DNA from: a virus
Taxonomy: Duplodnaviria > Caudoviricetes
IMG/VR virus record: IMGVR_UViG_3300036770_007283
Length of the DNA: 64,000 nucleotides
Direction: 5' to 3' (one strand)
Positions within the stretch are counted from its first letter, which is position 1; each line of letters opens with the position of its first letter. Below the pieces are notes generated by a model that was not told the origin of the DNA, did not search any database, and was given only the letters and a program-made list of their open reading frames with translations. Positions 5,184-45,200 of the stretch are shown here, piece by piece. The translations under genes were made by a program, and so were the position numbers.

Positions 5184-5713
5184 CAGGTACTCCTATTGAT
5201 ACCCTTGAACCCACCACGCTTAGAATGAATCGGTGCCTCTTTTCCAAGATTAGGGTTGGTTAAAACCCTCTGTTGATGTAACTTTCTTAGTCGCTCAGCC
5301 TTGTTAGATAAATCTTCTGGTAGAACATTACCATCATCATCTAACTGATCTAAGTGTTCTGCGTATTCTTTTTCAATCTCACTACGAATATCATCCTCTT
5401 CAACATAGTCAGATTCTTCAGAAGTGGCAATCACCTGACGGGCTGGTTTAGCACTTAAAGAGATATCTTCTAAAATCTGCTTCCCGATCCCACCCTTTAA
5501 TTCATTAAAGAAGAATAAAGAAATGTCATAAATCTGTGATTCGGTGAAAGAAGAAGAAAAACGTTCGGCACTAATTTTGTTCTGAATTAAAGTAATAATA
5601 TTGGTGTCACGATTTGAAAAAAGGCTAGAACCACAAGAAGGGCATAAATTCTTCATCAAGGCAAATCGCATTGATTCGTTAACGCCAAAACCACATTCAT
5701 TACAGTGCATCAT
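5183..5713 (-). CDS. Zn-ribbon hypothetical protein
   Basis: N-terminal CNEC...CPSC. Confidence 0.65.
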   Translation of the reverse strand: MMHCNECGFGVNESMRFALMKNLCPSCGSSLFSNRDTNIITLIQNKISAERFSSSFTESQIYDISLFFFNELKGGIGKQILEDISLSAKPARQVIATSEESDYVEEDDIRSEIEKEYAEHLDQLDDDGNVLPEDLSNKAERLRKLHQQRVLTNPNLGKEAPIHSKRGGFKGINRST

Positions 5714-6744
5714 ACTTTTTTTCCTAAGGCACTTTCAAGTAGGGAAAGTGACAAACCCTTTTGTTCCATATATTCATCTACCTTACAAATAGCCCTGATT
5801 GGTAAGCCGTCAGTTAGAACCGTCATATATTTATCATAATCATCTTGCCAAACGGTTAATTCGGCGGTGGAACCTTCTGCATCCTCGACTAAATACTTGG
5901 CAAATTTTCTACCTATATTTTTACCACGTTTAATTTTAAATTCCTTAACCATAGCCTTGATAATTACTTCAATCTTAACCTTAGTTCCAGAAGGAATCTG
6001 GGGGATCTTTCTCAATGGCGTAACATTAGAATCCTGCCGAAAGAAACCTTTGAAAACCTCATGGAGAGAACCGCTGATTGTTCTGCCCAAAACCTCTCTC
6101 TCGTTGGTGAGCAGATCCTTGCGCTCCCATTCTTCATGGTACGTAGGGAATACAATGTCATCAATAGTTTTTCCTTTCTTTTTTTCTTTATTGATCAAAT
6201 CACGATAATGTGAGTGGTTTTCAAAAATATCCTTTCTGGTTCTTCCAAAAGAAGTAAAAGCACCAGCCTTAGACATTGACTCCATGACTCTTTTATTTAC
6301 TACCCTTGCATTTGTTCTAAAGAAAAAATCCTCAATCGAAGCAAAGGGTTGCAATGAGATGATTTCTTGAATTGCAGTATCGCCAACACCCTTAATCGCT
6401 GTTAAGCCTGTAACAATAGTTCCATCTTCCTTGGTAACATAACTGCCGGTGCTTTTGTTAACATCTGGTGGGGTAATGGAAATGCCCATCTTGGAGCATT
6501 CGGAAATATATTCTAAGGTTTTATCAGAGTTAGGATCCTCGCTGTTAAGCAATGCACACATAAATTGTGTAGGATAATGACATCTCAACCAAGCAGTATA
6601 ATAAGAAATATGTGAATAAGAAACTGAGTGAGAATTAGAAGTAAGCATACCGTTAGATAAATAATATTGGTGATCAGGATGCTCTACTTCTAGATCATAA
6701 GTATCCATCATCCCAACTTCTTTTACTGATTTAATTTTAGCCAA
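5710..6744 (-). CDS. dnaE: DNA polymerase III alpha, C-terminal half, preceded by split-intein IntC
   Basis: TTG start with GGAGG SD; 37-aa IntC then SHSVSYSHISYYTAWLRCHYP, GLTAIKGVG (HhH), OB fold. Confidence 0.95.
   Translation of the reverse strand: MAKIKSVKEVGMMDTYDLEVEHPDHQYYLSNGMLTSNSHSVSYSHISYYTAWLRCHYPTQFMCALLNSEDPNSDKTLEYISECSKMGISITPPDVNKSTGSYVTKEDGTIVTGLTAIKGVGDTAIQEIISLQPFASIEDFFFRTNARVVNKRVMESMSKAGAFTSFGRTRKDIFENHSHYRDLINKEKKKGKTIDDIVFPTYHEEWERKDLLTNEREVLGRTISGSLHEVFKGFFRQDSNVTPLRKIPQIPSGTKVKIEVIIKAMVKEFKIKRGKNIGRKFAKYLVEDAEGSTAELTVWQDDYDKYMTVLTDGLPIRAICKVDEYMEQKGLSLSLLESALGKKV
6634..6744 (-). mobile_element. split intein C-fragment (DnaE IntC, 37 aa)
   Basis: MAKIKSVKEVGMMDTYDLEVEHPDHQYYLSNGMLTSN|S: block F YDLEV, terminal Asn, Ser+1. 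Confidence 0.93.
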
Positions 6745-6752
6745 AAAACCTC

Positions 6753-7559
6753 CTAGTTTGGTTCTGGTGTCCCATTTATTTCTAGATTCAGAAATTCATC
6801 CATCTCTTCTGAACTAGTACTGGGTCCAAAAATTCTTTCGTTAGCTATTTTAATATACTTCTCTTCTTGTTCAATTAAGATAAAATCTCTATCTAAATTC
6901 TTGCAGGCTACACCCGTCGTTCCACTTCCCGCGCAATTATCTAAAACTATTTCCCCAGGGTTGGTATAAGTCTTTATTAAATATTCAAATAAAGAAACCG
7001 GCTTCACCGTAGGATGAGAACCGCTAGTATCGGTATTAAATTTCTGCCAAGAAGACGGGACCCTTAATTCTGGAACTTCGACAATACCACGGCCTTTGAA
7101 TTTTCTATAGTTTTCAGACCTGGTGTTATGATCTTTACGATATCGCTTTGTATGCTTCTTACCAGTGGCAGATGTTCTTTCCTGCATCTGCTTGTTATAA
7201 GTCCATTTTCCTCTTGAAAAAATTAGAACCTGCTCATGCTCTTTGAAAGGTTCTCTGACTGTATTTGCAAAATTACTTCCACGATTTTTAATCCAAATCC
7301 ATTCGTGACGAAACATCTTTGGGTTAGACATAACTAAAGCACTAGAAAAAGGTTGGGAAGCAGTCAGGGCTATAACTGCATTAGGTTTTGTAATTCTTTT
7401 ATATTGTTCCCAAAGTTTATCAAAAGGGATTACTGTATCCCATTTGTTTTGGGTAATTCCATAAGGTAAATCACAAAGAATCATATCTATGGAACCATCA
7501 TCTATCTTCTTCATTACTTCTAAGCAATCACCCTGATATATCTTGTTTTTTTCTAGCAT
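6753..7559 (-). CDS. DNA N4-C/N6-A methyltransferase (beta class)
   Basis: DMILCDLPYG, HPTVKP, VLDNCAGSGTTG. Confidence 0.9.
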   Translation of the reverse strand: MLEKNKIYQGDCLEVMKKIDDGSIDMILCDLPYGITQNKWDTVIPFDKLWEQYKRITKPNAVIALTASQPFSSALVMSNPKMFRHEWIWIKNRGSNFANTVREPFKEHEQVLIFSRGKWTYNKQMQERTSATGKKHTKRYRKDHNTRSENYRKFKGRGIVEVPELRVPSSWQKFNTDTSGSHPTVKPVSLFEYLIKTYTNPGEIVLDNCAGSGTTGVACKNLDRDFILIEQEEKYIKIANERIFGPSTSSEEMDEFLNLEINGTPEPN

Positions 7560-7587
7560 TTCAAAATCCCGTAGGTTAGGTATAGCT

Positions 7588-7616
7588 AGTATACCTAGAG
7601 CAATCCTAATATTACT
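7588..7616 (-). promoter_or_regulatory. putative promoter for the MTase-dnaE-C unit
   Basis: AGTAAT-17 nt-TATACT; same TAATAT-N15-TATA pattern as three other intergenic sites. Confidence 0.5.
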
Positions 7617-7678
7617 CTATTTTTAGAACCAAGTTTGGAAAACTTAAACCAACTTCATTTATACTCAAAAATATATTT

Positions 7679-8932
7679 TTATTGAACTATTCTTAGCTTA
7701 GTTGTGCTGACGTTAGTTATTTCACAATCTTGTTCTTCATCACCACGAGGTACCTGGCTTGATAATCCAGAAGCTAAAGTAATGTTGTGATTGCCATTAG
7801 CGTTAATAACATCAGCAACTATAGAACCATAAAAAGAAGCATTGCCATTTGGGTAGACTGTTGATTCTGGTGCATAAATGGTTCCATTAAAAGTGCTAGA
7901 GCCATTTATTCTAACTACTCTTTCACCAATAACCCTTATCTCAAAACACTCCGGATGATCTGCATTGCCAGTAACACCACCATTTAAATTTACATTACCA
8001 TTAACATATAAAATGGTTGGACTAGTACATCCATCAGATGTGCCAGAAATATTAATCATTTCTCTTGCCGTTCTTTGCTCCAAATCACCATCAACATAAT
8101 AAACTTCACCTTCTTGAAGTGTAGTGACTATAGTTGTATTAGAACCCCTACCCACACGAACACCATTAGGTAGGGCATGATAACTTTCAGGATAATCCAC
8201 TGGACTGATTGGAATTTCCATACCCATAGGTGTAGAGTCGCCTGTGAAGTTATAAGCAGAACCCCTAGAGTCTATGCAAGGGGTTCCTACATCATATTCA
8301 CAATCTGGACCCATATGAATATCTATTCCGTTTTGTACATTAAGACTACCGCCCAAAGTTATCCCACCGGAGTTAGTACAAGCAGATGCGCCGGCAGTTA
8401 CCTCATCTATTCTTAGATCAAAATTTCCACTTAGTTCCAATTGAGAATTGGCAAAGATTAAGCAGGGCCAATCACCATCGTTAGTAGGGACACACTCTTC
8501 TTCTAAGGTAGCAACCTTACCAGCAATAGAAGTTGCATGAACATGGTAAGTATAGTATCCAAACATTCCACCAAATATAGATGGAATATTGGATTCTGTA
8601 GTTATTTTTACATAATCACCATTATCCATATCTAAGATCCACTCACCACCTTGATTAAAGGTACCAATTTCAGTGGTAACATTTTCAGAGGTTATAGTGG
8701 CTCCATAGACGGTATGGCTTGTAGCAATAGAGGTTGCTTCTTCAGATACAGTAGTAGTGTTATTACTACCATCATCTTCACTGCCAAGATAGGCGGCGGA
8801 AGAAATTGCGGAAGTATCTGCGGCAGTTTGCAACTGCGCCTTAGAATAAGTCATAAGACCATAATCTATGGAAAGCGCTGCAAATCCAATAAATATGGGA
8901 AGTGAAATACTAAAATAAGTAGCAGTAGACAT
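7679..8932 (-). CDS. TadG/TadE-like (Flp pilus pseudopilin) protein with a beta-rich C-terminal domain
   Basis: LPIFIGFAALSIDYGLMTYSKAQLQTAADTSAISSA matches the Tad-domain helix; C-terminal GTIYAP...FYGSIVA repeats. Confidence 0.7.
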   Translation of the reverse strand: MSTATYFSISLPIFIGFAALSIDYGLMTYSKAQLQTAADTSAISSAAYLGSEDDGSNNTTTVSEEATSIATSHTVYGATITSENVTTEIGTFNQGGEWILDMDNGDYVKITTESNIPSIFGGMFGYYTYHVHATSIAGKVATLEEECVPTNDGDWPCLIFANSQLELSGNFDLRIDEVTAGASACTNSGGITLGGSLNVQNGIDIHMGPDCEYDVGTPCIDSRGSAYNFTGDSTPMGMEIPISPVDYPESYHALPNGVRVGRGSNTTIVTTLQEGEVYYVDGDLEQRTAREMINISGTSDGCTSPTILYVNGNVNLNGGVTGNADHPECFEIRVIGERVVRINGSSTFNGTIYAPESTVYPNGNASFYGSIVADVINANGNHNITLASGLSSQVPRGDEEQDCEITNVSTTKLRIVQ

Positions 8933-8990
8933 TTTGTATACCTAGAATTTGTTATTTATAGTTACAATAAATATTGAAAAATATTCTTTT

Positions 8991-10205
8991 TCAAGATTTA
9001 ATCTCTGTTTTCTGGGCAACAGGGACTATACACTCCTGTTCTAAAGGTAACCAATAAAATCCTGTTCTATTAATCCCCTTTAATCGTTGTTCCCTGCTAA
9101 TTGCAGGCAACTGAAGGGCAATATTCTGGGATGCATTTAAATCCGAGTTTCCTGTGTATCCACAGGATCTGCATTTAAATAACAATCCTTTCCTATTCCC
9201 CTTACGAACCCAACCGCACTGGAAACACCTTTGACTTGTGTAAGTAGGGCTAACCTTAATAATCTGGACACCAGCATCTTTAAGTTTAGAATCCAACTTT
9301 TCAAATAGTTCCCTGTAATTCCAATGAGAAAGGTTGCGGCTTGACTTTCTTCCCTTTCTCATATTTCTAATGTTCTCCCTTCTAACTACCTTTATATTCT
9401 GTATATTCAGTCTGTTTACAGACCAATTTATGTAGTTAGTACGGTGTGCTTCTGCTCTCCTAAATCCCTTGGAACCCTTTTTCTTCCTTGCTAATTTTTG
9501 ACAAATAGCTTTGTAATTGTGACCATGGTTATCCTTGTCAACTACTTGACCATTTGAACAAGACAAAATAGAATTTTGCCCTATATCTATCCCTAGGGTT
9601 TCCCCAGATTCCCTTTCTCTAGGTTCCTCCAATTCAAAACCAAACGTTATGGAATCTTTTGATAACCTAACTCCTGCTTTTAGTGTTCCTGAGGCTAACA
9701 TTTTATTGAAGTGCTTTGTTTTCTTAAAAGGTATCTTTATAGTTAGCTTATTACCAAGAGAAGATAGGGTTACCCAACCATCGAAGATGGTATCATTATC
9801 CAAGTCTATTTTAACAAACCTAGAATCTAACTCTGGTTTAATATCTCCAACTAAAGGCTTTGAAGCAATATTTTTGTTATAGATTTGCTGAATTTTTCTG
9901 GCTTTCTTAAACATACCTTGAGCATTGAACTTATTTATTTGCCAAAGCCTTCGGCTTTGTTTAGCTTTAGTTCCACGGACAATAGCAGAAGCCTGTTTAC
10001 CAGCAGCTTGCAATGCTCTTGCAGATAACCAAGTTTGAATCTGGGAAGTTATTCTCTTATCAAGCAGGGCAGGAATTTTATCCATATCCCAAAGGGGATC
10101 TATGAAAAGGGTAGTAACCCTCTGGTATTCTGCAATAAAAAGGGAAAGGTTTTCCATTTTAACCTTTCTGCAGAATTTGGTAGTTACTTTAGTTGACTTT
10201 ACCAT
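8991..10205 (-). mobile_element. tnpB: TnpB-family RuvC nuclease (IS200/IS605-like), no tnpA
   Basis: LGIDIG (RuvC-I), RRENI (RuvC-II), TSQRCFQCG...CRSCG Zn finger, DLNASQNI (RuvC-III). Confidence 0.9.
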
Positions 10206-10264
10206 GATTTATATAGAAATATTACTATAATTTTAAATTTATTTTAATAAATAATATAAAGGAA

Positions 10265-10723
10265 TCAAATACATTCTTCAGAGCAGAAGTTACCCTCTTC
10301 ACCACATACTATAAAAGTATTAGGAATTACACCTTTACATTTATAAGTCTTCATTTTTTTAGTCCATTCCTCTTTGGTTTGGCATTCTTCTAAGGAAATT
10401 AATAAAGCCTCCACTTCGTTGGTTTCTTTTAAAATAAAAGTCATCCAGCCTTGGAAGTTACCAACCCGCCAAACATTTGCACCGAAATGGTAAGCATACA
10501 AATCTTCTTTTTGAAAGTGTTCCCTATTTAATTTTATTAAGCCACCTAATGTAGCATGGTCACTGAAGTCTGGAATGGCACCATCCGGTGGCAACAAGCC
10601 TTCATCATTAATCCTACCACAAATATTTATATCAAGTGGAAAAAACCAACGCATACCTGGCAACCACTTCCAATTCTTACAGATTAAAGTTTTGAGTCCT
10701 AAATCTATTTTGTCTTGCAGCAT
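10265..10723 (-). CDS. hypothetical phage protein
   Basis: WKWLPGM...PDFSDHATLGGL motif; Cys-rich tail. Confidence 0.6.
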   Translation of the reverse strand: MLQDKIDLGLKTLICKNWKWLPGMRWFFPLDINICGRINDEGLLPPDGAIPDFSDHATLGGLIKLNREHFQKEDLYAYHFGANVWRVGNFQGWMTFILKETNEVEALLISLEECQTKEEWTKKMKTYKCKGVIPNTFIVCGEEGNFCSEECI

Positions 10724-10749
10724 GTTATTTATCTTTTGTCCAAATTATT

Positions 10750-11070
10750 TTAGTTACTATCTAATGCTGCTCTAACTGCTGCATCTTTAGATTCTAGCAA
10801 TTTTCTAAGTGCAACTTCTGTTTCAGGGCTATAAGGCGCTCGTCTAGCAACTTGTTCGGCCAACTCAGCAAATGGTCTTGAAACCTCTTGTAACTTTGGT
10901 GGTAAATGATCAAATTTGAAATATTTTAAAGTTGGTGATAATTGGTATTGACTATAAACAACCAAATCATTTAAAGTCGGTACTGGCATAGAAACCATAA
11001 CCTCACCAGAACGAACCTTGGCACATCCATTTGCCATACAATCTGGATTTGCACAACAGCATGTAATCAT
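10750..11070 (-). CDS. small helical-hairpin protein, possibly Acb2/Tad1-like
   Basis: FDHLPPKLQEVSRPFAELA...PYSPETEVALRKLLESKDAAVRA; GGAG SD; the family link is by-eye only. Confidence 0.45.
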   Translation of the reverse strand: MITCCCANPDCMANGCAKVRSGEVMVSMPVPTLNDLVVYSQYQLSPTLKYFKFDHLPPKLQEVSRPFAELAEQVARRAPYSPETEVALRKLLESKDAAVRAALDSN

Positions 11071-11115
11071 ATAAACTCCTCCCTTTAAATTGTTTTACAA
11101 ATTAAACTAAGATTT

Positions 11116-11433
11116 TCATCCATAATGTTCGCTATTTTTAATTGCTGTAATTATATCTTCATAAGCAGCAGCGCACAGCGGAATGTCAGCAGATTCCATT
11201 CTTTTGTTGAGAAATTCTAAGATTAATTTTCTCTCTCGCATTTCTCCCAAAACCTCACTGGCTTCTGGTGGTGGCCAAGACGATCTTGCTTCATAATCCT
11301 GAATTATATTATCTGCTTTGCTTACTAGTTGCCAGACCCATTCTGCTGCAAACTCTTTATCCTCCAGCCTAAGAAAAAACTCCTCAATAAAATCATCTTT
11401 TGTGTACAGCATAACACCCTCACTTATTAACAA
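11116..11433 (-). CDS. hypothetical protein
   Basis: ORF overlapping the dnaE-N stop. Confidence 0.6.
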   Translation of the reverse strand: MLISEGVMLYTKDDFIEEFFLRLEDKEFAAEWVWQLVSKADNIIQDYEARSSWPPPEASEVLGEMRERKLILEFLNKRMESADIPLCAAAYEDIITAIKNSEHYG

Positions 11434-14074
11434 CTATTTCTAATTTATCTTCTAAAATTTTCCAGAGCGGCAACATTTCGCCTGTATTAGTTCTAAATTT
11501 ATGATTGATTGTACAAACTGTTTTTGAGCCATCGTCTAATTCTACTTCAAATACTTTTAATTTTCCGTGATAATGATTATCCTTGACAGGGATCATAATA
11601 TCTTGTCCCGTTTCTTCATTTCTGCTACGAACCCAACAGCCTGGTTCAACATTTCTGATTGGAATATCTTTCCACTCTCTAGCATCAGAATCTCTGTATA
11701 CCCGGATTAATTCATCAAACTTCAAGGAGCGATTAAAGCCATATAATCCGAATGGTTCGATTTGCTCATCCCAAATTCTTTTGGCTTCTTCATATTTCAT
11801 ACCAGATACTTTCATGCAGTCAGCAATAAAGTTAGCCTCTGTTTTTAAAACTAGATCTGGATCTTTACCTTTTAATTTTGTAATTTTCCTTAGTGCATCT
11901 GCTTGGTTAAGATCCCAACCTGCACAATCCTTGGCAATGGTCATCATGCCTTCTTCATAAAGAGAAACACCATAAGTCTTCTTTAATGAATTTTCCATTT
12001 TAGGATGGATGTATTCGATTTCTTCTACTCCAAGTTTTCTGTTGATATAATCGTTCCTCTGTTCTGGTGAACAAGAAGGTCTGCCTAGTGCATTAATGTC
12101 AGAAATTTCTTCAATATTTTTTGGCTTAATCTTCATACAAAGTGGGGTAAGTGATGACTCCAATTGAAAGACGCCGGCAGTTTCACCACGTCCAATCATT
12201 TTAAAAGTTTCTGTATCACCTAAGGGAATATCTTCAATAGTTATTTTTTTACTTTTGGTTTCTTGAATTATATTAAAGGTATCAGTAATTACGTTTAATG
12301 TATTTAGACCAAGAAGATCCATTTTAACTAGACCGAAATCTTCGCACCTAGTTTTCTCCCATTGGGTAACCACCAAGCCGGTTTCTGCATCAATTCTAAG
12401 GGGGACAATCTCGTATAGTGGACGATCACTAATTACAACCCCAGCGGCATGAACACTCCAATTCCTTGTCAGTCCTTGAAGCTTGCAGGCATTTTCATAT
12501 AGTTCTGGATATTTCTTCATATATGAAGCAAACTCTTTACTTTCTTTCATTGCCTGTTCTACTGTCTCTGTATCTGGCATGATAGAAGTTAAATGATTTG
12601 CAATTTTAAAGGCTTCTGATTTATCACCACCTAGCTCTAGACTTCTAGCTACGTCTTTAATAATCACCTTTGGTGACAGTGTAGACCAATTGCTGATGGA
12701 AGCGACTTTATCTTCCCCATATTTTTCTTTCAGATATTCTTTCACCTTGGCCGGGTCTGCGAAGTCTGAGTCAATATCTGGAAAGCTTTTCTTTTCTTTA
12801 TTCTGAAATCTTTCAAACAGGAGGTCGTACTTAATGGGGTCAACTGTAGTGATGCCAGTTAAAAATGCAACAATAGAGCCGGCACAACTTCCTCTTGCAG
12901 GCGAGCAAGGCATTCCTTGTGACTTAGCCCAATTTACGAAGTCTGCCACAATAAGCATATAAGAAGAAAAGTTTTTCTCTTCCATTACACTTAATTCTTT
13001 TTTAACCCTATCCCAGTATTCTTTCTTCTGTTCATCTTCTAGATGGCCTAATTTTTCTTTAAATCCGGCCATACATTTATATCTCAAATAGGACTTATCT
13101 TCTTCTATATCAGGACAAACCTTGGAAGACCAACCCTTAAATTTTTGATATTCGTTTTCTTTTTGAACTGGAAACTTAGGAAGAATCGCACCCTTTGGTT
13201 CAATATAGGTAGGATTATCACAGGCGTTTAAAATCTTGATAGAATTCTCCATGCCTTTCTTGGCAACATCTGGACCAAAGAAGGATGTAATTTCTTCATA
13301 TGTTTTAAGGTACATATCTTGCACGCCATAACGAAATCTATCAGGATCGTTGATTGGCTTTTTGTCTTTAATAGCTAACATAAAATCGTGATACTTGGCA
13401 TGGTCTTTATCTCGATAGTGGGCATCACAAGTAATAACATAGGGGATGCTCTTATCATGCGATAGTCGAATCATTGCTTCATTTAGCTTTCTCTGGCTAA
13501 CTTCCTTGCCAGTTTTGCCTGTAGCCTGGAGGTCATGTGGCTGGATTTCAAGAAAGAATCTATCTTTAAAAATAGCATTAAATCGATCAAGATAACAAAG
13601 AGCTTCTTGCTCATTTCCTTCTGTAATTAAAGTTTTGGCAATCAAACCATTAGAACAAGCGGTAAGGGCAATAACACCCTGGTTGAACTGCTCGATATGT
13701 TCCCAAGAAATTCTGGGCGTTTGTTTACCCATATACCCAGAGACTTGGTTGCGGTAAGCCTCATAATTTAGTCGTAGAATATTTCGATAACCTACTTCAT
13801 TTTGTGCAAGTAGAACAAGGTGATAATTCTTCTTATCAGATAGATCTGGTGCGAAGTACGCCTCCATACCTGGAATTAACTTAACGCCATGCTTCTTACT
13901 TGCTTTCCAAGCATCAAAAATAGCTGTCATAGTACCATGATCTGTGACTGCTACGCCTGGATGATCTACTTCTTTAGCGCGAATAAAAAGGTCTTCCACA
14001 TCATTCATACCATCCAAAGGTGAACCCAATTCAGTATGGTTGTGCAAAGACACAAATGGTCCTGAAATACCCAT
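11420..14074 (-). CDS. dnaE: DNA polymerase III alpha, N-terminal part (PHP + palm), followed by split-intein IntN
   Basis: HNHTELGSPLDG, TDHG, RGSCAGS, SFPDIDSDF, SVHAAGVV, KMDLLGL, ...YGFNR then 102-aa IntN. Confidence 0.97.
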   Translation of the reverse strand: MGISGPFVSLHNHTELGSPLDGMNDVEDLFIRAKEVDHPGVAVTDHGTMTAIFDAWKASKKHGVKLIPGMEAYFAPDLSDKKNYHLVLLAQNEVGYRNILRLNYEAYRNQVSGYMGKQTPRISWEHIEQFNQGVIALTACSNGLIAKTLITEGNEQEALCYLDRFNAIFKDRFFLEIQPHDLQATGKTGKEVSQRKLNEAMIRLSHDKSIPYVITCDAHYRDKDHAKYHDFMLAIKDKKPINDPDRFRYGVQDMYLKTYEEITSFFGPDVAKKGMENSIKILNACDNPTYIEPKGAILPKFPVQKENEYQKFKGWSSKVCPDIEEDKSYLRYKCMAGFKEKLGHLEDEQKKEYWDRVKKELSVMEEKNFSSYMLIVADFVNWAKSQGMPCSPARGSCAGSIVAFLTGITTVDPIKYDLLFERFQNKEKKSFPDIDSDFADPAKVKEYLKEKYGEDKVASISNWSTLSPKVIIKDVARSLELGGDKSEAFKIANHLTSIMPDTETVEQAMKESKEFASYMKKYPELYENACKLQGLTRNWSVHAAGVVISDRPLYEIVPLRIDAETGLVVTQWEKTRCEDFGLVKMDLLGLNTLNVITDTFNIIQETKSKKITIEDIPLGDTETFKMIGRGETAGVFQLESSLTPLCMKIKPKNIEEISDINALGRPSCSPEQRNDYINRKLGVEEIEYIHPKMENSLKKTYGVSLYEEGMMTIAKDCAGWDLNQADALRKITKLKGKDPDLVLKTEANFIADCMKVSGMKYEEAKRIWDEQIEPFGLYGFNRSLKFDELIRVYRDSDAREWKDIPIRNVEPGCWVRSRNEETGQDIMIPVKDNHYHGKLKVFEVELDDGSKTVCTINHKFRTNTGEMLPLWKILEDKLEIVVNK
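11423..11728 (-). mobile_element. split intein N-fragment (DnaE IntN, 102 aa, Ser1)
   Basis: SLKFDELIRV (block A with Ser1), VCTINHKF (block B TxxH), then stop. Confidence 0.9.
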
Positions 14075-14132: not shown

Positions 14133-14159
14133 ATGGGCCGCCTTATTTTGGCGGCCCAT
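14133..14159 (-). terminator. intrinsic terminator
   Basis: ATGGGCCGCC/GGCGGCCCAT 10-bp stem in intergenic DNA. Confidence 0.75.
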
Positions 14160-40637: not shown

Positions 40638-42191
40638 TTATGTTTTAAAAACATATAATCTTTGTCCAGCGTCCCAGATCTTGTGCAAACCTAGCTCTTT
40701 GGCATGTTCTTTTTCTGAAAGCCCCCTGTTATCCATGTTGGCACGACATTTAAGCCTATTAAAAGTAGTTTTATAATCAGTCCATTCCCAACCTTGTGTT
40801 TCTTTATCTAAGACAAAACTATGATTCAATAAAAACTTTCCCGTTCCATATCTTAAATCTACCCAATAATGTATAGAAAGATTTCCAACGAGGTTAGTGA
40901 TTCCTTTCAATAGTTTTGAAAAAGCACCAACCACATTAGTATTTATTTTGGAGCAAAACCTTTCTACTTTAATAATCTTAGATTCTTGAATTTTATAAGA
41001 CATTATAGAAATTAGCTCTTCATTTAAGAAAAGTCCAATATGCTTAGCGGGCTTATAGCCTTTAATATGGTGTTGTTCTAAGAATGATTTAGCAAGTGCA
41101 GTAGTGACTTCTTTTAAGGTTGTTTTTCTAGCTCCTATTTTGCCTTGAGAATTTCCTATAGCGTTATTGATCATAGATTTTATGATAGGCATTTTAAAGT
41201 AAATTTCATCTGCACGAAATTGAAAAAGCCTAAGATTTAGGTCTTCATATTTTTTTCTCATTACAAAATGATAATCAGCAGGTAGCTTTTCTTCTGAATG
41301 CCAATATAGCCCATCAGCATTTAAATATATAGTATCAGTAATTTTAAAATCAGGTCGATATGAAAATCCGGCAATAGGTTGCTTGTTCCAAAGTGTTAGG
41401 CCTAATGAATTTGAAACAAGGTTTTCAATATCAGAAATCTTATGCACATAATTCTGACAGAATTCTTTGAAGTCTTCTTCTGCAAACTCTTTATTAATCT
41501 GTAGCCATTTATAGATTGCCATATCAGAAATATTATATTCTTGCGACCAAAAAGCTGGTGTTTTTCCGCAAACCAACGTTATCTGTCCGTTGTTGGCTTG
41601 TGTCTCTTGGATCTTCTTTCTTATTTCTTCAGATTGAAATGGATTTAGAACACCATATCTTTCAAGAAGTGTTGCCTCAGCTTTTGCTTTAATTTCTGGA
41701 TTTTTAAGAGTGCAATCAGAGCCATATCTTTCTCTTACGGTTTCAGAAAACTTTTGAAGTATGGCTTCACTTTTTAATGGTGAATCTACACCATAATTTT
41801 TAATGATGGTTGCCATTTTTTTGTCTTTAACTTCTTGGGATTGGGATGGATTTTCTACACCATATTTAGATAGGTTTGTTTGCTTTATCTTTTCTTTAAC
41901 TTGACTATTTTGAAATTGGTTTTCTGTGCCATATTTTTGAAGGTTAGTTTGCTTCTTTTTCTCTATGGCAGTTTTACTATGTGCAGCATTAACTACGCCA
42001 TGATTTTGCAACATAGTTTTTTCTCTGGCTTCTTTAACCTTGTTCGATTCTTTTTTGAAGCCATACATTTTAACCATTTTATTAATAAAGTAGGGGCTGC
42101 ATCCTGCCAGTTGAGCTAACTCAACCCAGCTTAGATTTTCAACAATATATTTTTGATAAAGCCAATCTTTATCCAAATTTGTTTTTTTCAT
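40638..42191 (-). CDS. free-standing homing-endonuclease-like protein (KYGVENP repeats + C-terminal nuclease-like domain)
   Basis: multiple KYGVENPSQ-type repeats; YRPDF...ADGLYWH; VERFCSK...GAFSKLL. Confidence 0.7.
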   Translation of the reverse strand: MKKTNLDKDWLYQKYIVENLSWVELAQLAGCSPYFINKMVKMYGFKKESNKVKEAREKTMLQNHGVVNAAHSKTAIEKKKQTNLQKYGTENQFQNSQVKEKIKQTNLSKYGVENPSQSQEVKDKKMATIIKNYGVDSPLKSEAILQKFSETVRERYGSDCTLKNPEIKAKAEATLLERYGVLNPFQSEEIRKKIQETQANNGQITLVCGKTPAFWSQEYNISDMAIYKWLQINKEFAEEDFKEFCQNYVHKISDIENLVSNSLGLTLWNKQPIAGFSYRPDFKITDTIYLNADGLYWHSEEKLPADYHFVMRKKYEDLNLRLFQFRADEIYFKMPIIKSMINNAIGNSQGKIGARKTTLKEVTTALAKSFLEQHHIKGYKPAKHIGLFLNEELISIMSYKIQESKIIKVERFCSKINTNVVGAFSKLLKGITNLVGNLSIHYWVDLRYGTGKFLLNHSFVLDKETQGWEWTDYKTTFNRLKCRANMDNRGLSEKEHAKELGLHKIWDAGQRLYVFKT

Positions 42192-42582: not shown

Positions 42583-43257
42583 TTATTTTTTGGTGCCATA
42601 AGCATGTGATTCATTTAGGCTAGACTGGGTAATGACAATGTAGGTATCAAACTTCTGTAACTCTGCAATGGTTCTGGTATTGGTATAAGACATGCCTGAC
42701 TTAAGACCACCCACAAACCCATCATCACCGTAGAGAACTTCTTTTAAGGATCCTACGTATGGAATATGGGTAGTTACACCTTCGGAACAAGTACCTTCTT
42801 TTAGGCCGCCACGAAGATCTTTTTGTACTGATGCTGAGGCCATACCTCGATACATCTTTTTGGGAACTTCGTCAATATAAACTAAACTTGAGGGTGACTC
42901 ATCTGTTCCAGCAAAAACGCCACCACACATAACAGCATCTGCCCCACCAATAATTGACTTAACAACGTCGGATGGATAACGGATTCCACCGTCTGCAATA
43001 ATTGATGGATATTTCATGTTGGGATTATTTTTATTATAATATTTGAATTTATGCCTTGCTCTAGCGCAATCGACCACAGAGGATAAAGTCGGGATTCCAA
43101 CGGAGCTTTGGATGCGTGTTTTGCAGATTGAGTTGTGTAAAAATACACCATTTGAAGAAAATGAGTGTGAATTTTCTACTGTGATATCATAGACCATTCC
43201 TGAAAAATGGAATCTCTTAATATTCGACGGCTTGGAGAGTTTGTATTTCTTTAGCAT
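42583..43257 (-). CDS. guaB: IMP dehydrogenase/GMP reductase, C-terminal half, preceded by IntC
   Basis: 42-aa IntC then SICKTR, IIADGGIR, GADAVMCG, YRGMAS, EGV, GGLKSGMSY. Confidence 0.93.
   Translation of the reverse strand: MLKKYKLSKPSNIKRFHFSGMVYDITVENSHSFSSNGVFLHNSICKTRIQSSVGIPTLSSVVDCARARHKFKYYNKNNPNMKYPSIIADGGIRYPSDVVKSIIGGADAVMCGGVFAGTDESPSSLVYIDEVPKKMYRGMASASVQKDLRGGLKEGTCSEGVTTHIPYVGSLKEVLYGDDGFVGGLKSGMSYTNTRTIAELQKFDTYIVITQSSLNESHAYGTKK
43132..43257 (-). mobile_element. split intein C-fragment (IMPDH IntC, 42 aa)
   Basis: ...VYDITVENSHSFSSNGVFLHN|S: block F, His-Asn, Ser+1. Confidence 0.95.
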
Positions 43258-44293
43258 CTTTTAACTCCTGAATTATTTTCAGCAATACGTATGTTTTTTC
43301 ATAATCTTTAGATTCTGACTCTCTAATTCTATAAATAACAAAGTTATGTTTTTTTGCTAATTCATCTTTGTAGGCATCATTATTTTTTATTTTTAAAATT
43401 TTATCCACTGATAATATCGGATGGTTATCTTCTTCTGGGTGCCAAAAATCTCCATCAAATTCGACCAATATTTTATCAAATAAGCAGGCATCATAATAAC
43501 GGTCACCCAGTCGATATGTTCTTTTTATATTGTTTGGACCAACAAAGTATGATAACATATCAAAATATTCTGTTTCTGGTTTTGAGGCAATTGAATCTTT
43601 GAAAATATCTGAGTAATCATTTACTGCAAACTCATTAATTCTTTTTTTCAATACCCACGAAGAGATGTTTAATTGATAAAGATCAATAATTTTTTGATAT
43701 GAGGTTGTTTTTCCTTCAGACTTTATATAGTCAAGATATTTTATAACGACATCCATTGTCTCCTCAGGGACTTTTATATAGCAACCATTTTTTTCTCCAA
43801 GGTTGGAATAAACTAACTGATGCTTTTTCGCATTTGAATCTATAGTTTTCTTAGATGCTATCTTTAATTTAATCCACCAATTCTTAATGGTTCTAAAGTC
43901 ATGACCAGATATTTCTGATATCTTGTATGCGGGATACTTTGGTGATTGGTATTTTTCCCAGTAATCTTCTAGCGATTCTTTTGTTAATCCAATTTTTGTA
44001 TAATTATCCTTGAAAGTTTCTAATAATGATTCTGAAATTTGCTTCTTTCTTTCTTTTGGAACTGCACAATATCTAACGTGATCTCCTACATATTTTAGAT
44101 ATTTTCCTTTTTCAAATTTAGTTTCATTTCCACAGCCACAACCACAAGTTGGTTTTACGTCATTATGTGTATATTTTAAAACGTAGCTTTCTAAAGTTAT
44201 AGAGTGATCTTTTTTAAGATGAAATGAAAATTGAGCATATCTTCTTGAATCTTGATAATGAGAAAAATCCTTGTCACAAAGTAAGCATTTCAT
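43217..44293 (-). CDS. free-standing Vsr/DUF559-like endonuclease between the split-intein halves
   Basis: N-terminal CLLC/CGCGC; C-terminal YDAC...VEFDGDFWH...DAYKDELAKKH...RIRE; start at MKCLLC (GGAGG SD). Confidence 0.8.
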   Translation of the reverse strand: MKCLLCDKDFSHYQDSRRYAQFSFHLKKDHSITLESYVLKYTHNDVKPTCGCGCGNETKFEKGKYLKYVGDHVRYCAVPKERKKQISESLLETFKDNYTKIGLTKESLEDYWEKYQSPKYPAYKISEISGHDFRTIKNWWIKLKIASKKTIDSNAKKHQLVYSNLGEKNGCYIKVPEETMDVVIKYLDYIKSEGKTTSYQKIIDLYQLNISSWVLKKRINEFAVNDYSDIFKDSIASKPETEYFDMLSYFVGPNNIKRTYRLGDRYYDACLFDKILVEFDGDFWHPEEDNHPILSVDKILKIKNNDAYKDELAKKHNFVIYRIRESESKDYEKTYVLLKIIQELKDAKEIQTLQAVEY

Positions 44294-44357
44294 GCGACTA
44301 GCCCTCCGCATACTATGCTTTTGTATTAGCAGATTTGGCTAGAAAAATTAAAACATG

Positions 44358-45200
44358 TTATTCATCACCATGGCCCACCAACATGTGATTATCGTTAATT
44401 TCTCCTGCTGGAAGCCAAAATGCAAAATTATGAATATTTTCATCTGTAAGCTTATCAATATCCTGCACATTAACAACGTAGTATTTGTGATCTGTTGTGG
44501 TTTCTATTCCGTTGATAGAAATAACTTCTTCATTTTTAAGAGAAGTAATTATATCAGTTACAGAATTCCATTCTCCAGAGTGGGTAAGAACTACATCTCC
44601 CAACTCAATTTCTGAAATGGGAATGTCACCACGCTTCGTCAAAACGGTGGTTGTAGGCATTAAACAACCGCCTCCTATCCCTACCCGTACCGCATCGACA
44701 CCTAATTCAATCATAAATTCATAGCCATGAAAAGTAGCAATATTTCCTGCCATGATTGGTAGTCCTGGATAAGTTGCCTTTACCCAGTCTACCATTTCTT
44801 TCATTAGAATAGAGTGTCCATTAGCAACATCAATAGATACCATATGGATTGGAATTGCTGCTTCCATTAGAGTGGTGAGTCTTTTTCTTTCAACCTCTCC
44901 CACTCCGATTGCCGGCACTACCCATTGATTTTCTTGGGCGACTTTTTGACATTCTTCTACTTGACGTTGAGGATCCATAAACCTATGGATAATGCCTAGA
45001 CCTCCAAGCCTTCCTAATTCGATAGCCATATTGGATTCTGTAACAGTATCCATAGGCGAAGAAATAAAAGGAATTTTTAGCTCTAGGGGTCCAACTTTTG
45101 TAGAGGTATCTGGTTCGGAACGAGAACGAATATCGGAATAAACTGGTGGGATAAGAATATCGTCAAAAGACAAACCTTTGATTCTTTTGTGTTCAATCAT
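44358..45200 (-). CDS. guaB: IMP dehydrogenase/GMP reductase, N-terminal half (no CBS), followed by IntN
   Basis: LSFDDILI, SSPMDTVTE, GGLGIIHRF, IDVANGH, MAGNIAT, VRVGIGGG then 102-aa IntN. Confidence 0.93.
   Translation of the reverse strand: MIEHKRIKGLSFDDILIPPVYSDIRSRSEPDTSTKVGPLELKIPFISSPMDTVTESNMAIELGRLGGLGIIHRFMDPQRQVEECQKVAQENQWVVPAIGVGEVERKRLTTLMEAAIPIHMVSIDVANGHSILMKEMVDWVKATYPGLPIMAGNIATFHGYEFMIELGVDAVRVGIGGGCLMPTTTVLTKRGDIPISEIELGDVVLTHSGEWNSVTDIITSLKNEEVISINGIETTTDHKYYVVNVQDIDKLTDENIHNFAFWLPAGEINDNHMLVGHGDE
44361..44666 (-). mobile_element. split intein N-fragment (IMPDH IntN, 102 aa, Cys1)
   Basis: CLMPTTTVLT (block A), ETTTDHKY (block B), then stop. Confidence 0.95.

Follow-up and report, generated by a model that had tools for sequence, protein, structure and literature searches.

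A fractured phage dnaE gene with a probable Ser1/Ser+1 split intein related to the cyanobacterial DnaE inteins and several kilobases of cargo between its halves

The replicative DNA polymerase gene dnaE of a large uncultured phage (Duplodnaviria; Caudoviricetes; IMG/VR record IMGVR_UViG_3300036770_007283) is encoded in two pieces, each carrying half of a split intein, on the minus strand of the window, the 64,000-nt stretch analysed here, which belongs to a 178-kb contig with an estimated completeness of about 52%. Judged by its sequence, the locus is a phage fractured gene of the kind published in 2009 and comes from a large family, and we regard it as very probable, from sequence and modelling taken together, that it is a genuine, working fractured dnaE whose halves trans-splice to a DnaE of 1089 aa. 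The halves would be translated separately, probably from one minus-strand transcription unit, and the 102-aa N-intein (IntN) and 37-aa C-intein (IntC) would associate into a single Hint fold to carry out class 1 trans-splicing via oxyester intermediates, starting with an N-O acyl shift at Ser1 and going on through transesterification to Ser+1 and cyclisation of IntC Asn37 to a closing O-N shift. Ser+1 is the serine of the conserved DnaE motif FNKSHS, and the product would regain the native YGFNRSHS. Behind this reading stand the observed gene anatomy and homology, alleles in which the site is empty, the conservation of the intein, signs of purifying selection and a docking model. The notable features are the oxygen nucleophiles in an Npu-related intein, a histidine signature at intein position 54 and a cargo of several kilobases in place of a homing endonuclease; seen purely as phage biology, this is an ordinary example of a known arrangement.

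The upstream half, dnaE-N, is an 884-aa open reading frame (ORF; 14074..11420, on the minus strand like every other gene of the locus) with PHP, Pol3-alpha (Pol III alpha catalytic) and finger domains. These domains lie in its N-extein, residues 1-782 (11729..14074), which ends ..FGLYGFNR, and the alignment to the DnaE model stops at residue 783. The last N-extein residue, R782 (codon 11731..11729), is followed directly by the first intein residue, S783 (11728..11726), from which IntN runs from Ser1 to Lys102 and a TGA stop (11420..11728). The downstream half, dnaE-C, is a 344-aa ORF (6744..5710) with a TTG start, 4 nt ahead of which stands the ribosome-binding site AGGAGG (6749..6754), overlapping the TAG stop of a methylase gene. 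It opens with IntC (6634..6744; M(TTG)AKIK to ..LTSN), a match to NCBIfam intein_Cterm, whose last residue, N37 (6636..6634), is followed by Ser+1 (6633..6631) and thus by the 307-aa C-extein and its stop codon (5710..6633; SHSVSY..) with HhH_6 and OB-fold domains; the DnaE alignment begins here at residue 37-38. Aligned to E. coli-type DnaE models, both pieces abut exactly, model position 752 being reached from each side, and the predicted spliced product is 782 + 307 = 1089 aa with the motif YGFNRSHS. The gap between the halves, 11419..6745, measures 4,675 nt and holds six ORFs. A first-pass annotation of this DNA had placed both ORFs and their junction motifs at these positions, expected a rebuilt DnaE of about 1089 aa containing YGFNRSHS and counted six unrelated genes in about 4.7 kb between the halves, with all of which our counts agree.

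Unitigs of three metagenome runs from one subsurface study tile the locus and bridge both junctions without mismatch; the runs are possibly the source sample and not independent of it. An assembly chimera was ruled out, since the layout is common to the closest related locus, L002, and both junctions are bridged by unitigs of all three runs. The stretch separating dnaE-N from the preceding gene contains, some 60 nt upstream of where dnaE-N starts, a strong GC-rich hairpin of 10 bp with a T-run behind it (14133-14159), a likely terminator, so that dnaE-N may open a new transcription unit. A promoter and terminator scan of the gap yielded no convincing minus-strand terminator between the halves and fewer promoter-like sites than in shuffles, a result that is compatible with co-transcription and is no evidence for it.

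The insertion point can be read from phages in which the gene is whole. Scanning IMG/VR with the N half yielded 32 related loci, and in 21 of them dnaE runs uninterrupted in one frame through Y[AGS]FNKSHSISYS, which places the foreign segment exactly between [KR] and Ser. The break falls within FNKSHS, a strongly conserved motif, and separates the finger module from the HhH/OB module. Two cyanobacterial-type matches, P0136 and P0153, end ..FAEY|CLS, a site four residues upstream of the window's FN[KR]|S, and their junctions together with the 21 intact alleles uphold the earlier claim that the window's site lies four residues downstream of the cyanobacterial Y|C split. A comparison with relatives, which the first-pass annotation had proposed, thus finds intact dnaE in 21 loci, and it also finds contiguous inteins at the same site. 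As these are both mini- and endonuclease-sized, the break could have arisen inside this allele family, and the suggestion of an independent fracture is to that extent plausible; among solved inteins, the cyanobacterial one is the family's nearest relative.

This family is large. A HMMER search over 1.84 billion representative proteins gave 194 matches at E up to 0.001, about 140 of which are clusters of inteins at the same DnaE site, with position 1 occupied by Ser in 83 of them, by Cys in 39 and by Thr in 18. Ninety-six clusters end at the IntN terminus and are thus split, including about 57 Ser1 split clusters besides the window locus, while the rest include contiguous inteins, either mini-inteins (132-147 aa) or of endonuclease size (372-446 aa). 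The ten contiguous-intein relatives whose sources were looked up are all metagenomic, and tblastn of IntN against 50,697 GenBank phage records gave no match, so that at BLAST sensitivity no cultured phage carries the family. A metagenomic protein of 440 aa, P0059, holds a contiguous Ser1/Ser+1 mini-intein (65 bits to IntN, with ..L-H-S-H-G.. and the ending LTSN|S) in a host protein that is not DnaE, so that members of the family have reached at least one host gene besides dnaE.

Compared with solved structures, IntN alone matches the Npu and Ssp DnaE inteins at E of about 1e-7, with gp41-1 next, and a profile of 41 alleles (A1) matches Npu/Ssp DnaE at 1.8e-15 to 5e-9 and gp41-1 (6QAZ) at 2.3e-6. 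Residues 2-37 of IntC align end to end with the 36-aa Npu IntC, which ends ..IASN, and the intein parts are also spanned by alignments to the NCBIfam models for the split DnaE-N and DnaE-C of cyanobacteria. A profile search, put forward earlier as a check, thus recovers both NCBIfam intein_Cterm and the solved Npu/Ssp DnaE inteins. The residues of a class 1 intein are all in place. In block A (S-L-K-F-D-E-L), the nucleophile Ser1 stands directly after R782, the last DnaE-aligned residue, and is Ser in 16/16 of the closest alleles. The T-x-x-H of block B is T73-I-N-H76, within C72-T73-I-N-H76-K-F, with H76 invariant in A1 and aligned with the Npu T-K-D-H. Blocks F and G are represented by Y-D-L-E-V..H-P-D-H and L-T-S-N|S, the terminal Asn being followed by the +1 nucleophile Ser. 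Ser1, T73, H76, the Asp and His of block F, the terminal Asn and Ser+1 are kept in 17 close alleles and in the 41-sequence alignment. The proposal of a Ser1/Ser+1 split intein is therefore well founded, with parts of 102 and 37 aa, a typical split position and the full class 1 set. The penultimate Ser in place of His, which had been called unusual, is present and is not unusual, because the Npu DnaE IntC likewise ends Ser-Asn. Assignment to class 3 was rejected: there is no WCT triplet, Phe78 occupies the block B place, the fourth position of block F is Asp and cysteine is absent from IntC. IntN contains two cysteines, Cys31 (variable) and Cys72, and so is not cysteine-less in the strict sense. 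Cys72 (11513-11515), just ahead of the block B Thr, is invariant in the 41 aligned alleles and present in nearly all 140 regardless of the position-1 nucleophile, whereas Npu has Ala; it matters for any 'cysteine-less' use.

In a two-chain complex model, IntN and IntC reach an ipSAE of 0.86, against 0.00 for the best of three controls; in the calibration of the tool, 51 of 78 solved complexes attained this mark, as did 2 of 108 mismatched pairs. The tight association that the docking model favours would also suit a polymerase that works in two pieces, in which the intein halves merely hold the DnaE fragments together non-covalently and splicing is slow or lost; Ser1 inteins are in general harder to activate than Cys1 inteins (PMC10189870), and the break between the finger and HhH/OB modules fits such an arrangement too. 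We consider it improbable, because the catalytic residues, including the terminal Asn and Ser1, are invariant or nearly so in about 100 Ser1/Thr1 alleles, whereas a dimerisation tag needs none of them, and because the conserved FNKSHS motif would remain split by 139 foreign residues.

Compared with L002, which is 90% identical, the N-extein has a dN/dS of 0.03 and IntN one of 0.14, with synonymous sites near saturation; by this sequence comparison, IntN is under purifying selection. Both dnaE halves are full-length and free of internal stops. The same measures bear on the idea that the locus is a decaying, insertion-disrupted dnaE, with replication left to the host polymerase or to another polymerase in the missing genome half. 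The incompleteness of the record, the mobile TnpB element within the gap and the loss of the homing endonuclease speak for decay, yet stop-free halves with such low dN/dS values at saturated synonymous distance, the retention of the two-piece layout by seven or more phage loci and by 96 protein clusters, and the strong ribosome-binding site ahead of dnaE-C make it very unlikely.

The same split intein occurs in six further loci, and the gaps differ widely in size and content. In L020 the gap is 80 bp and geneless; L004, a Cys1 allele, has 0.45 kb with a single unknown ORF; L003, L023 and L028 have 1.0-1.2 kb with a single ORF of 360-430 aa that overlaps the end of the N half; L002 has 3.5 kb with a cargo of several genes; and the window has its 4.7 kb and six genes. 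The gap ORF of L003, L023 and L028 combines a MucR-type zinc finger with a DUF559/Vsr-like nuclease core and has weak PHROG matches to homing endonucleases. In the ancestral phage layout, a free-standing Vsr-like homing endonuclease gene would have lain between the halves and been lost later in the lineage of the window, after which accessory genes and a TnpB element would have settled in the gap. Taken over the whole family, one DnaE site shows all the stages, from the endonuclease-bearing intein and the mini-intein through the split intein with a free-standing endonuclease to the split intein with an empty 80-bp gap or with kilobases of cargo, and this series documents how a fractured gene's two pieces can come to lie ever farther from each other, as happened to dnaE in cyanobacteria.

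The cargo of the window begins, 8 nt past the dnaE-N stop, with the ATG of a 98-aa ORF (11116..11412) that has no Pfam, NCBIfam or PHROG match, followed by a 106-aa ORF with a Cys-rich N-terminus (10750..11070; phrog_1761, function unknown) and a 152-aa ORF (10265..10723) with paralogue-like relatives in the L002 gap. Next come a solo TnpB of 404 aa, an RNA-guided nuclease of the IS200/IS605 type present in one copy in the record (8991..10205), a 417-aa TadE/TadG-like pseudopilin-type protein with DUF7305 (7679..8932) and a 268-aa N6/N4 DNA methyltransferase (6753..7559). The 98-aa and 106-aa ORFs, the 152-aa-like ORFs and the TadG-like protein are shared with L002, which has TadE, a 174-aa ORF and FeoA in place of TnpB and the methylase. 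None of the six gap ORFs matches a homing endonuclease, whether GIY-YIG or Vsr-like, and tblastn with the gap endonucleases of the relatives finds nothing in the window; the earlier description of six genes of mixed function where a homing endonuclease usually sits is thus accurate, with TnpB, the methylase, the TadG-like protein and three ORFs of no assigned function.

On an extein tree (residues 410-782), split and empty alleles are interleaved, the empty L005 falling within the L003/L023 pair and the empty L027 being sister to the split L020, which means that the cassette or the intein-free allele moves between phages. TnpB might be thought to drive such movement, having replaced the lost homing endonuclease at the place where relatives carry that gene, with its guide RNA cutting the intein-free dnaE of co-infecting phages and so driving the 4.7-kb cassette in. 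We give this little credence, the interleaved alleles notwithstanding. The reconstituted empty dnaE site shares no 11-mer with the gap on either strand, by a crude test, and hence there is no adjacent TnpB guide matching it; moreover, L002, the closest relative, has cargo without TnpB. Read depth tells the same way: over 9250-10230 it rises from about 12 to 26-46 (two- to four-fold) in two of the three metagenome runs (X2 and X3), and in these runs variant unitigs, about 90-95% alike, cover tnpB only. Extra depth and variants so confined suggest an ordinary multi-copy element with further copies or variants in the community. In the same samples, low-depth contig joints skip from 10252 to 11088 and from 10682 to 11427; their anchors are short (21-31 nt) and uncertain, and they may hint at co-occurring relatives with other gene content between the dnaE halves.

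Pasch et al. (2023; PMC10189870) described a histidine, the 'NX motif', that is conserved in Ser1 inteins only and needed for splicing. We mapped this position through Arg50 of Npu and the structure-based alignment in their Supplementary Fig. S7B (machine-read), in which His68 of PolB16 stands in the column of that DnaE Arg50 residue. His54 of the window intein, invariant in A1, aligns with Arg50 of the Npu/Ssp inteins (W-H-D-R-G) and is for this reason placed at the NX position; its spacing to H76 is 22 residues, against 23 between the NX and block B histidines of Psp Pol-1. A direct profile alignment to the PolB16 structure 8CPN was weak and out of register (E 0.18) and was not used. In the 140-allele alignment, His54 is found in 82/83 Ser1 and 16/18 Thr1 alleles (together 98/101) and in 5/39 Cys1 alleles, 27 of the 39 having Asn instead. 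Twenty-three Cys1 alleles have a nearest oxygen-nucleophile allele at least 50% identical, and position 54 differs in the expected direction in 20 of these 23 pairs; three of the five His-keeping Cys1 alleles fall in this set, one of them with the closest Ser1 neighbour of all (75% identity). His54 most likely helps to activate Ser1. As to the arginine at this place, Sun et al. are said to have proposed in 2005 that Arg50 of Ssp DnaE aids Asn cyclisation, standing in for the missing penultimate His.

Several observations pull against our interpretation of the locus and of its histidine. The residue ahead of His54, Tyr53 here and Asp in most alleles (H-D-H-G), is not the supposedly invariant Lys/Arg of the NX motif. 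A kinship-corrected test of the Ser1-His54 pairing on a 100-column intein tree retained three independent contrasts on well-supported branches, with a median p of 0.25, and is underpowered; the association of His54 with oxygen nucleophiles is thus strong in raw counts and unproven after correction for relatedness. The docking result may partly reflect the model's memory of solved DnaE split inteins, in which case it speaks to likeness and not to binding. The locus was found in no RNA run of those searched. No second dnaE was seen in the 178-kb record, itself about 52% complete, and a second polymerase gene may lie in the missing part. The order of events in the gap is read from seven loci.

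Set beside known systems, the locus is closest in layout to the fractured genes of environmental phages defined by Dassa, London, Stoddard, Schueler-Furman & Pietrokovski (2009; PMC2677866), who already had dnaE among the hosts, with three GOS dnaE loci, a Vsr-like endonuclease and integration points other than the cyanobacterial one. As in those, a replication gene is broken into two ORFs on one strand by a split intein of typical position, and in L003, L023 and L028 a zinc-finger and DUF559/Vsr-like ORF overlaps the end of the N half. The window differs in having six genes (4.7 kb), TnpB included, and no endonuclease gene, a lack for which one listed locus, gp41-7, is a precedent, and in its Ser1, where the 2009 text names Cys1 as the N-terminal catalytic residue (PMC2677866). 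The first-pass annotation overstated the novelty of the locus in this respect, since fractured dnaE at non-cyanobacterial sites with a Vsr-like endonuclease was published in 2009 and L003, L023 and L028 have that very layout. What is new here is the pattern of His at position 54, the NX position, which across the family goes with Ser1/Thr1 and seldom with Cys1.

The cyanobacterial split DnaE inteins (Ssp, Npu; 1ZD7, 4KL5, 4LX3, 2KEQ) share with the window intein the host protein, a split into about 102 + 36 aa and the absence of a penultimate His, and they are the best solved-structure match to both its halves. They differ in their site, Y|C against FN[KR]|S four residues downstream, in Cys1/Cys+1 against Ser1/Ser+1, in Arg50 against His54, in Ala against Cys72, and in gene halves at distant loci, whereas those of the window are 4.7 kb apart on one strand (PMC2677866). 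The gp41-1 split intein (6QAZ), the next-best solved match, is likewise a phage fractured-gene intein with Ser+1, but it has another host gene, Cys1 and a much lower similarity.

With the cysteine-independent split inteins (Neq Pol, Aes123 PolB1/CL/CLm, PolB16 OarG and LCGC14 PolB2; PMC10189870, PMC12707363, PMC13014065), the window intein has in common Ser at both junctions (theirs being Ser1/Ser+1 or Thr+1), which leads one to expect an oxyester pathway, a histidine in the NX place and non-catalytic internal cysteines, as in native PolB16. It differs from them in its host, DnaE and not PolB, in a sequence that groups with the DnaE/gp41-1-type phage inteins and in Asp/Tyr, not Lys/Arg, before the NX His. 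This literature terms Ser1/Ser+1 split inteins very rare (PMC10189870, PMC12707363, PMC13014065), in line with the first-pass view that serine nucleophiles are uncommon; within the present allele family that view does not hold, Ser1 being the majority (83/140).

As of March 2026, only four usable cysteine-independent split inteins were known, all derived from PolB (PMC13014065). Split inteins that need no cysteine to work are wanted for ligation under oxidising conditions, and the window locus and the roughly 57 further Ser1 split clusters form an untapped source from a different lineage, that of the Npu DnaE intein, which is very fast. The variation between Ser/Thr and Cys at this single site, with its His54 pattern, also provides an independent natural test of the 'NX histidine' idea. 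The best intein tree implies about 24 nucleophile switches, and it is conceivable, if somewhat doubtful, that this one DnaE site forms a natural allelic series with many changes between Cys1 and Ser1/Thr1, each switch to oxygen accompanied by His54 (Asn in Cys1 alleles, Arg in the cyanobacterial ones). Were this so, and were position 54 the main determinant, the series would be a natural recipe for converting fast, cysteine-dependent split inteins of the Npu type into cysteine-independent ones, which, according to the literature, has never yet been achieved by design; the window intein would in that case already supply, with the typical split, an oxyester counterpart to Npu DnaE.

Some of the related dnaE genes hold a further, contiguous intein at GPGRG|C, near DnaE residue 398 (L023:7633-8848; L024-L026:11203-12524; and P0017, with LAGLIDADG). 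It is the sole intein in L024-L026 and is accompanied by the split intein in L023 and P0017, an arrangement reminiscent of the published DnaE-1 locus with its additional in-frame intein.

The phage of the window itself has a second fractured gene, of the IMPDH/GMP-reductase type, on the minus strand at 42583-45200. Its N half and a Cys1 IntN occupy 44358..45200, IntC and the C half (..FLHN|S) lie at 42583..43257, and between them a 364-aa ORF (43217..44311), with zinc-finger and Vsr-like looks and no Pfam match, overlaps the next ORF. This is the published IMPDH fractured-gene layout and links the phage with those in which such broken genes were originally reported. The gene for the large terminase (GpA-type ATPase; L035:214-3069, G000:C1), which lies some 10 kb ahead of the window, carries a contiguous intein with a LAGLIDADG domain (Intein_splicing, residues 191-523), which with the dnaE and IMPDH-type inteins makes three in the record. 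Just downstream of the IMPDH-type fractured gene, a minus-strand ORF of 517 aa (40638-42191) contains DUF7487 and a motif that is repeated within it, and this may be a further selfish gene of the free-standing, nuclease-like sort.

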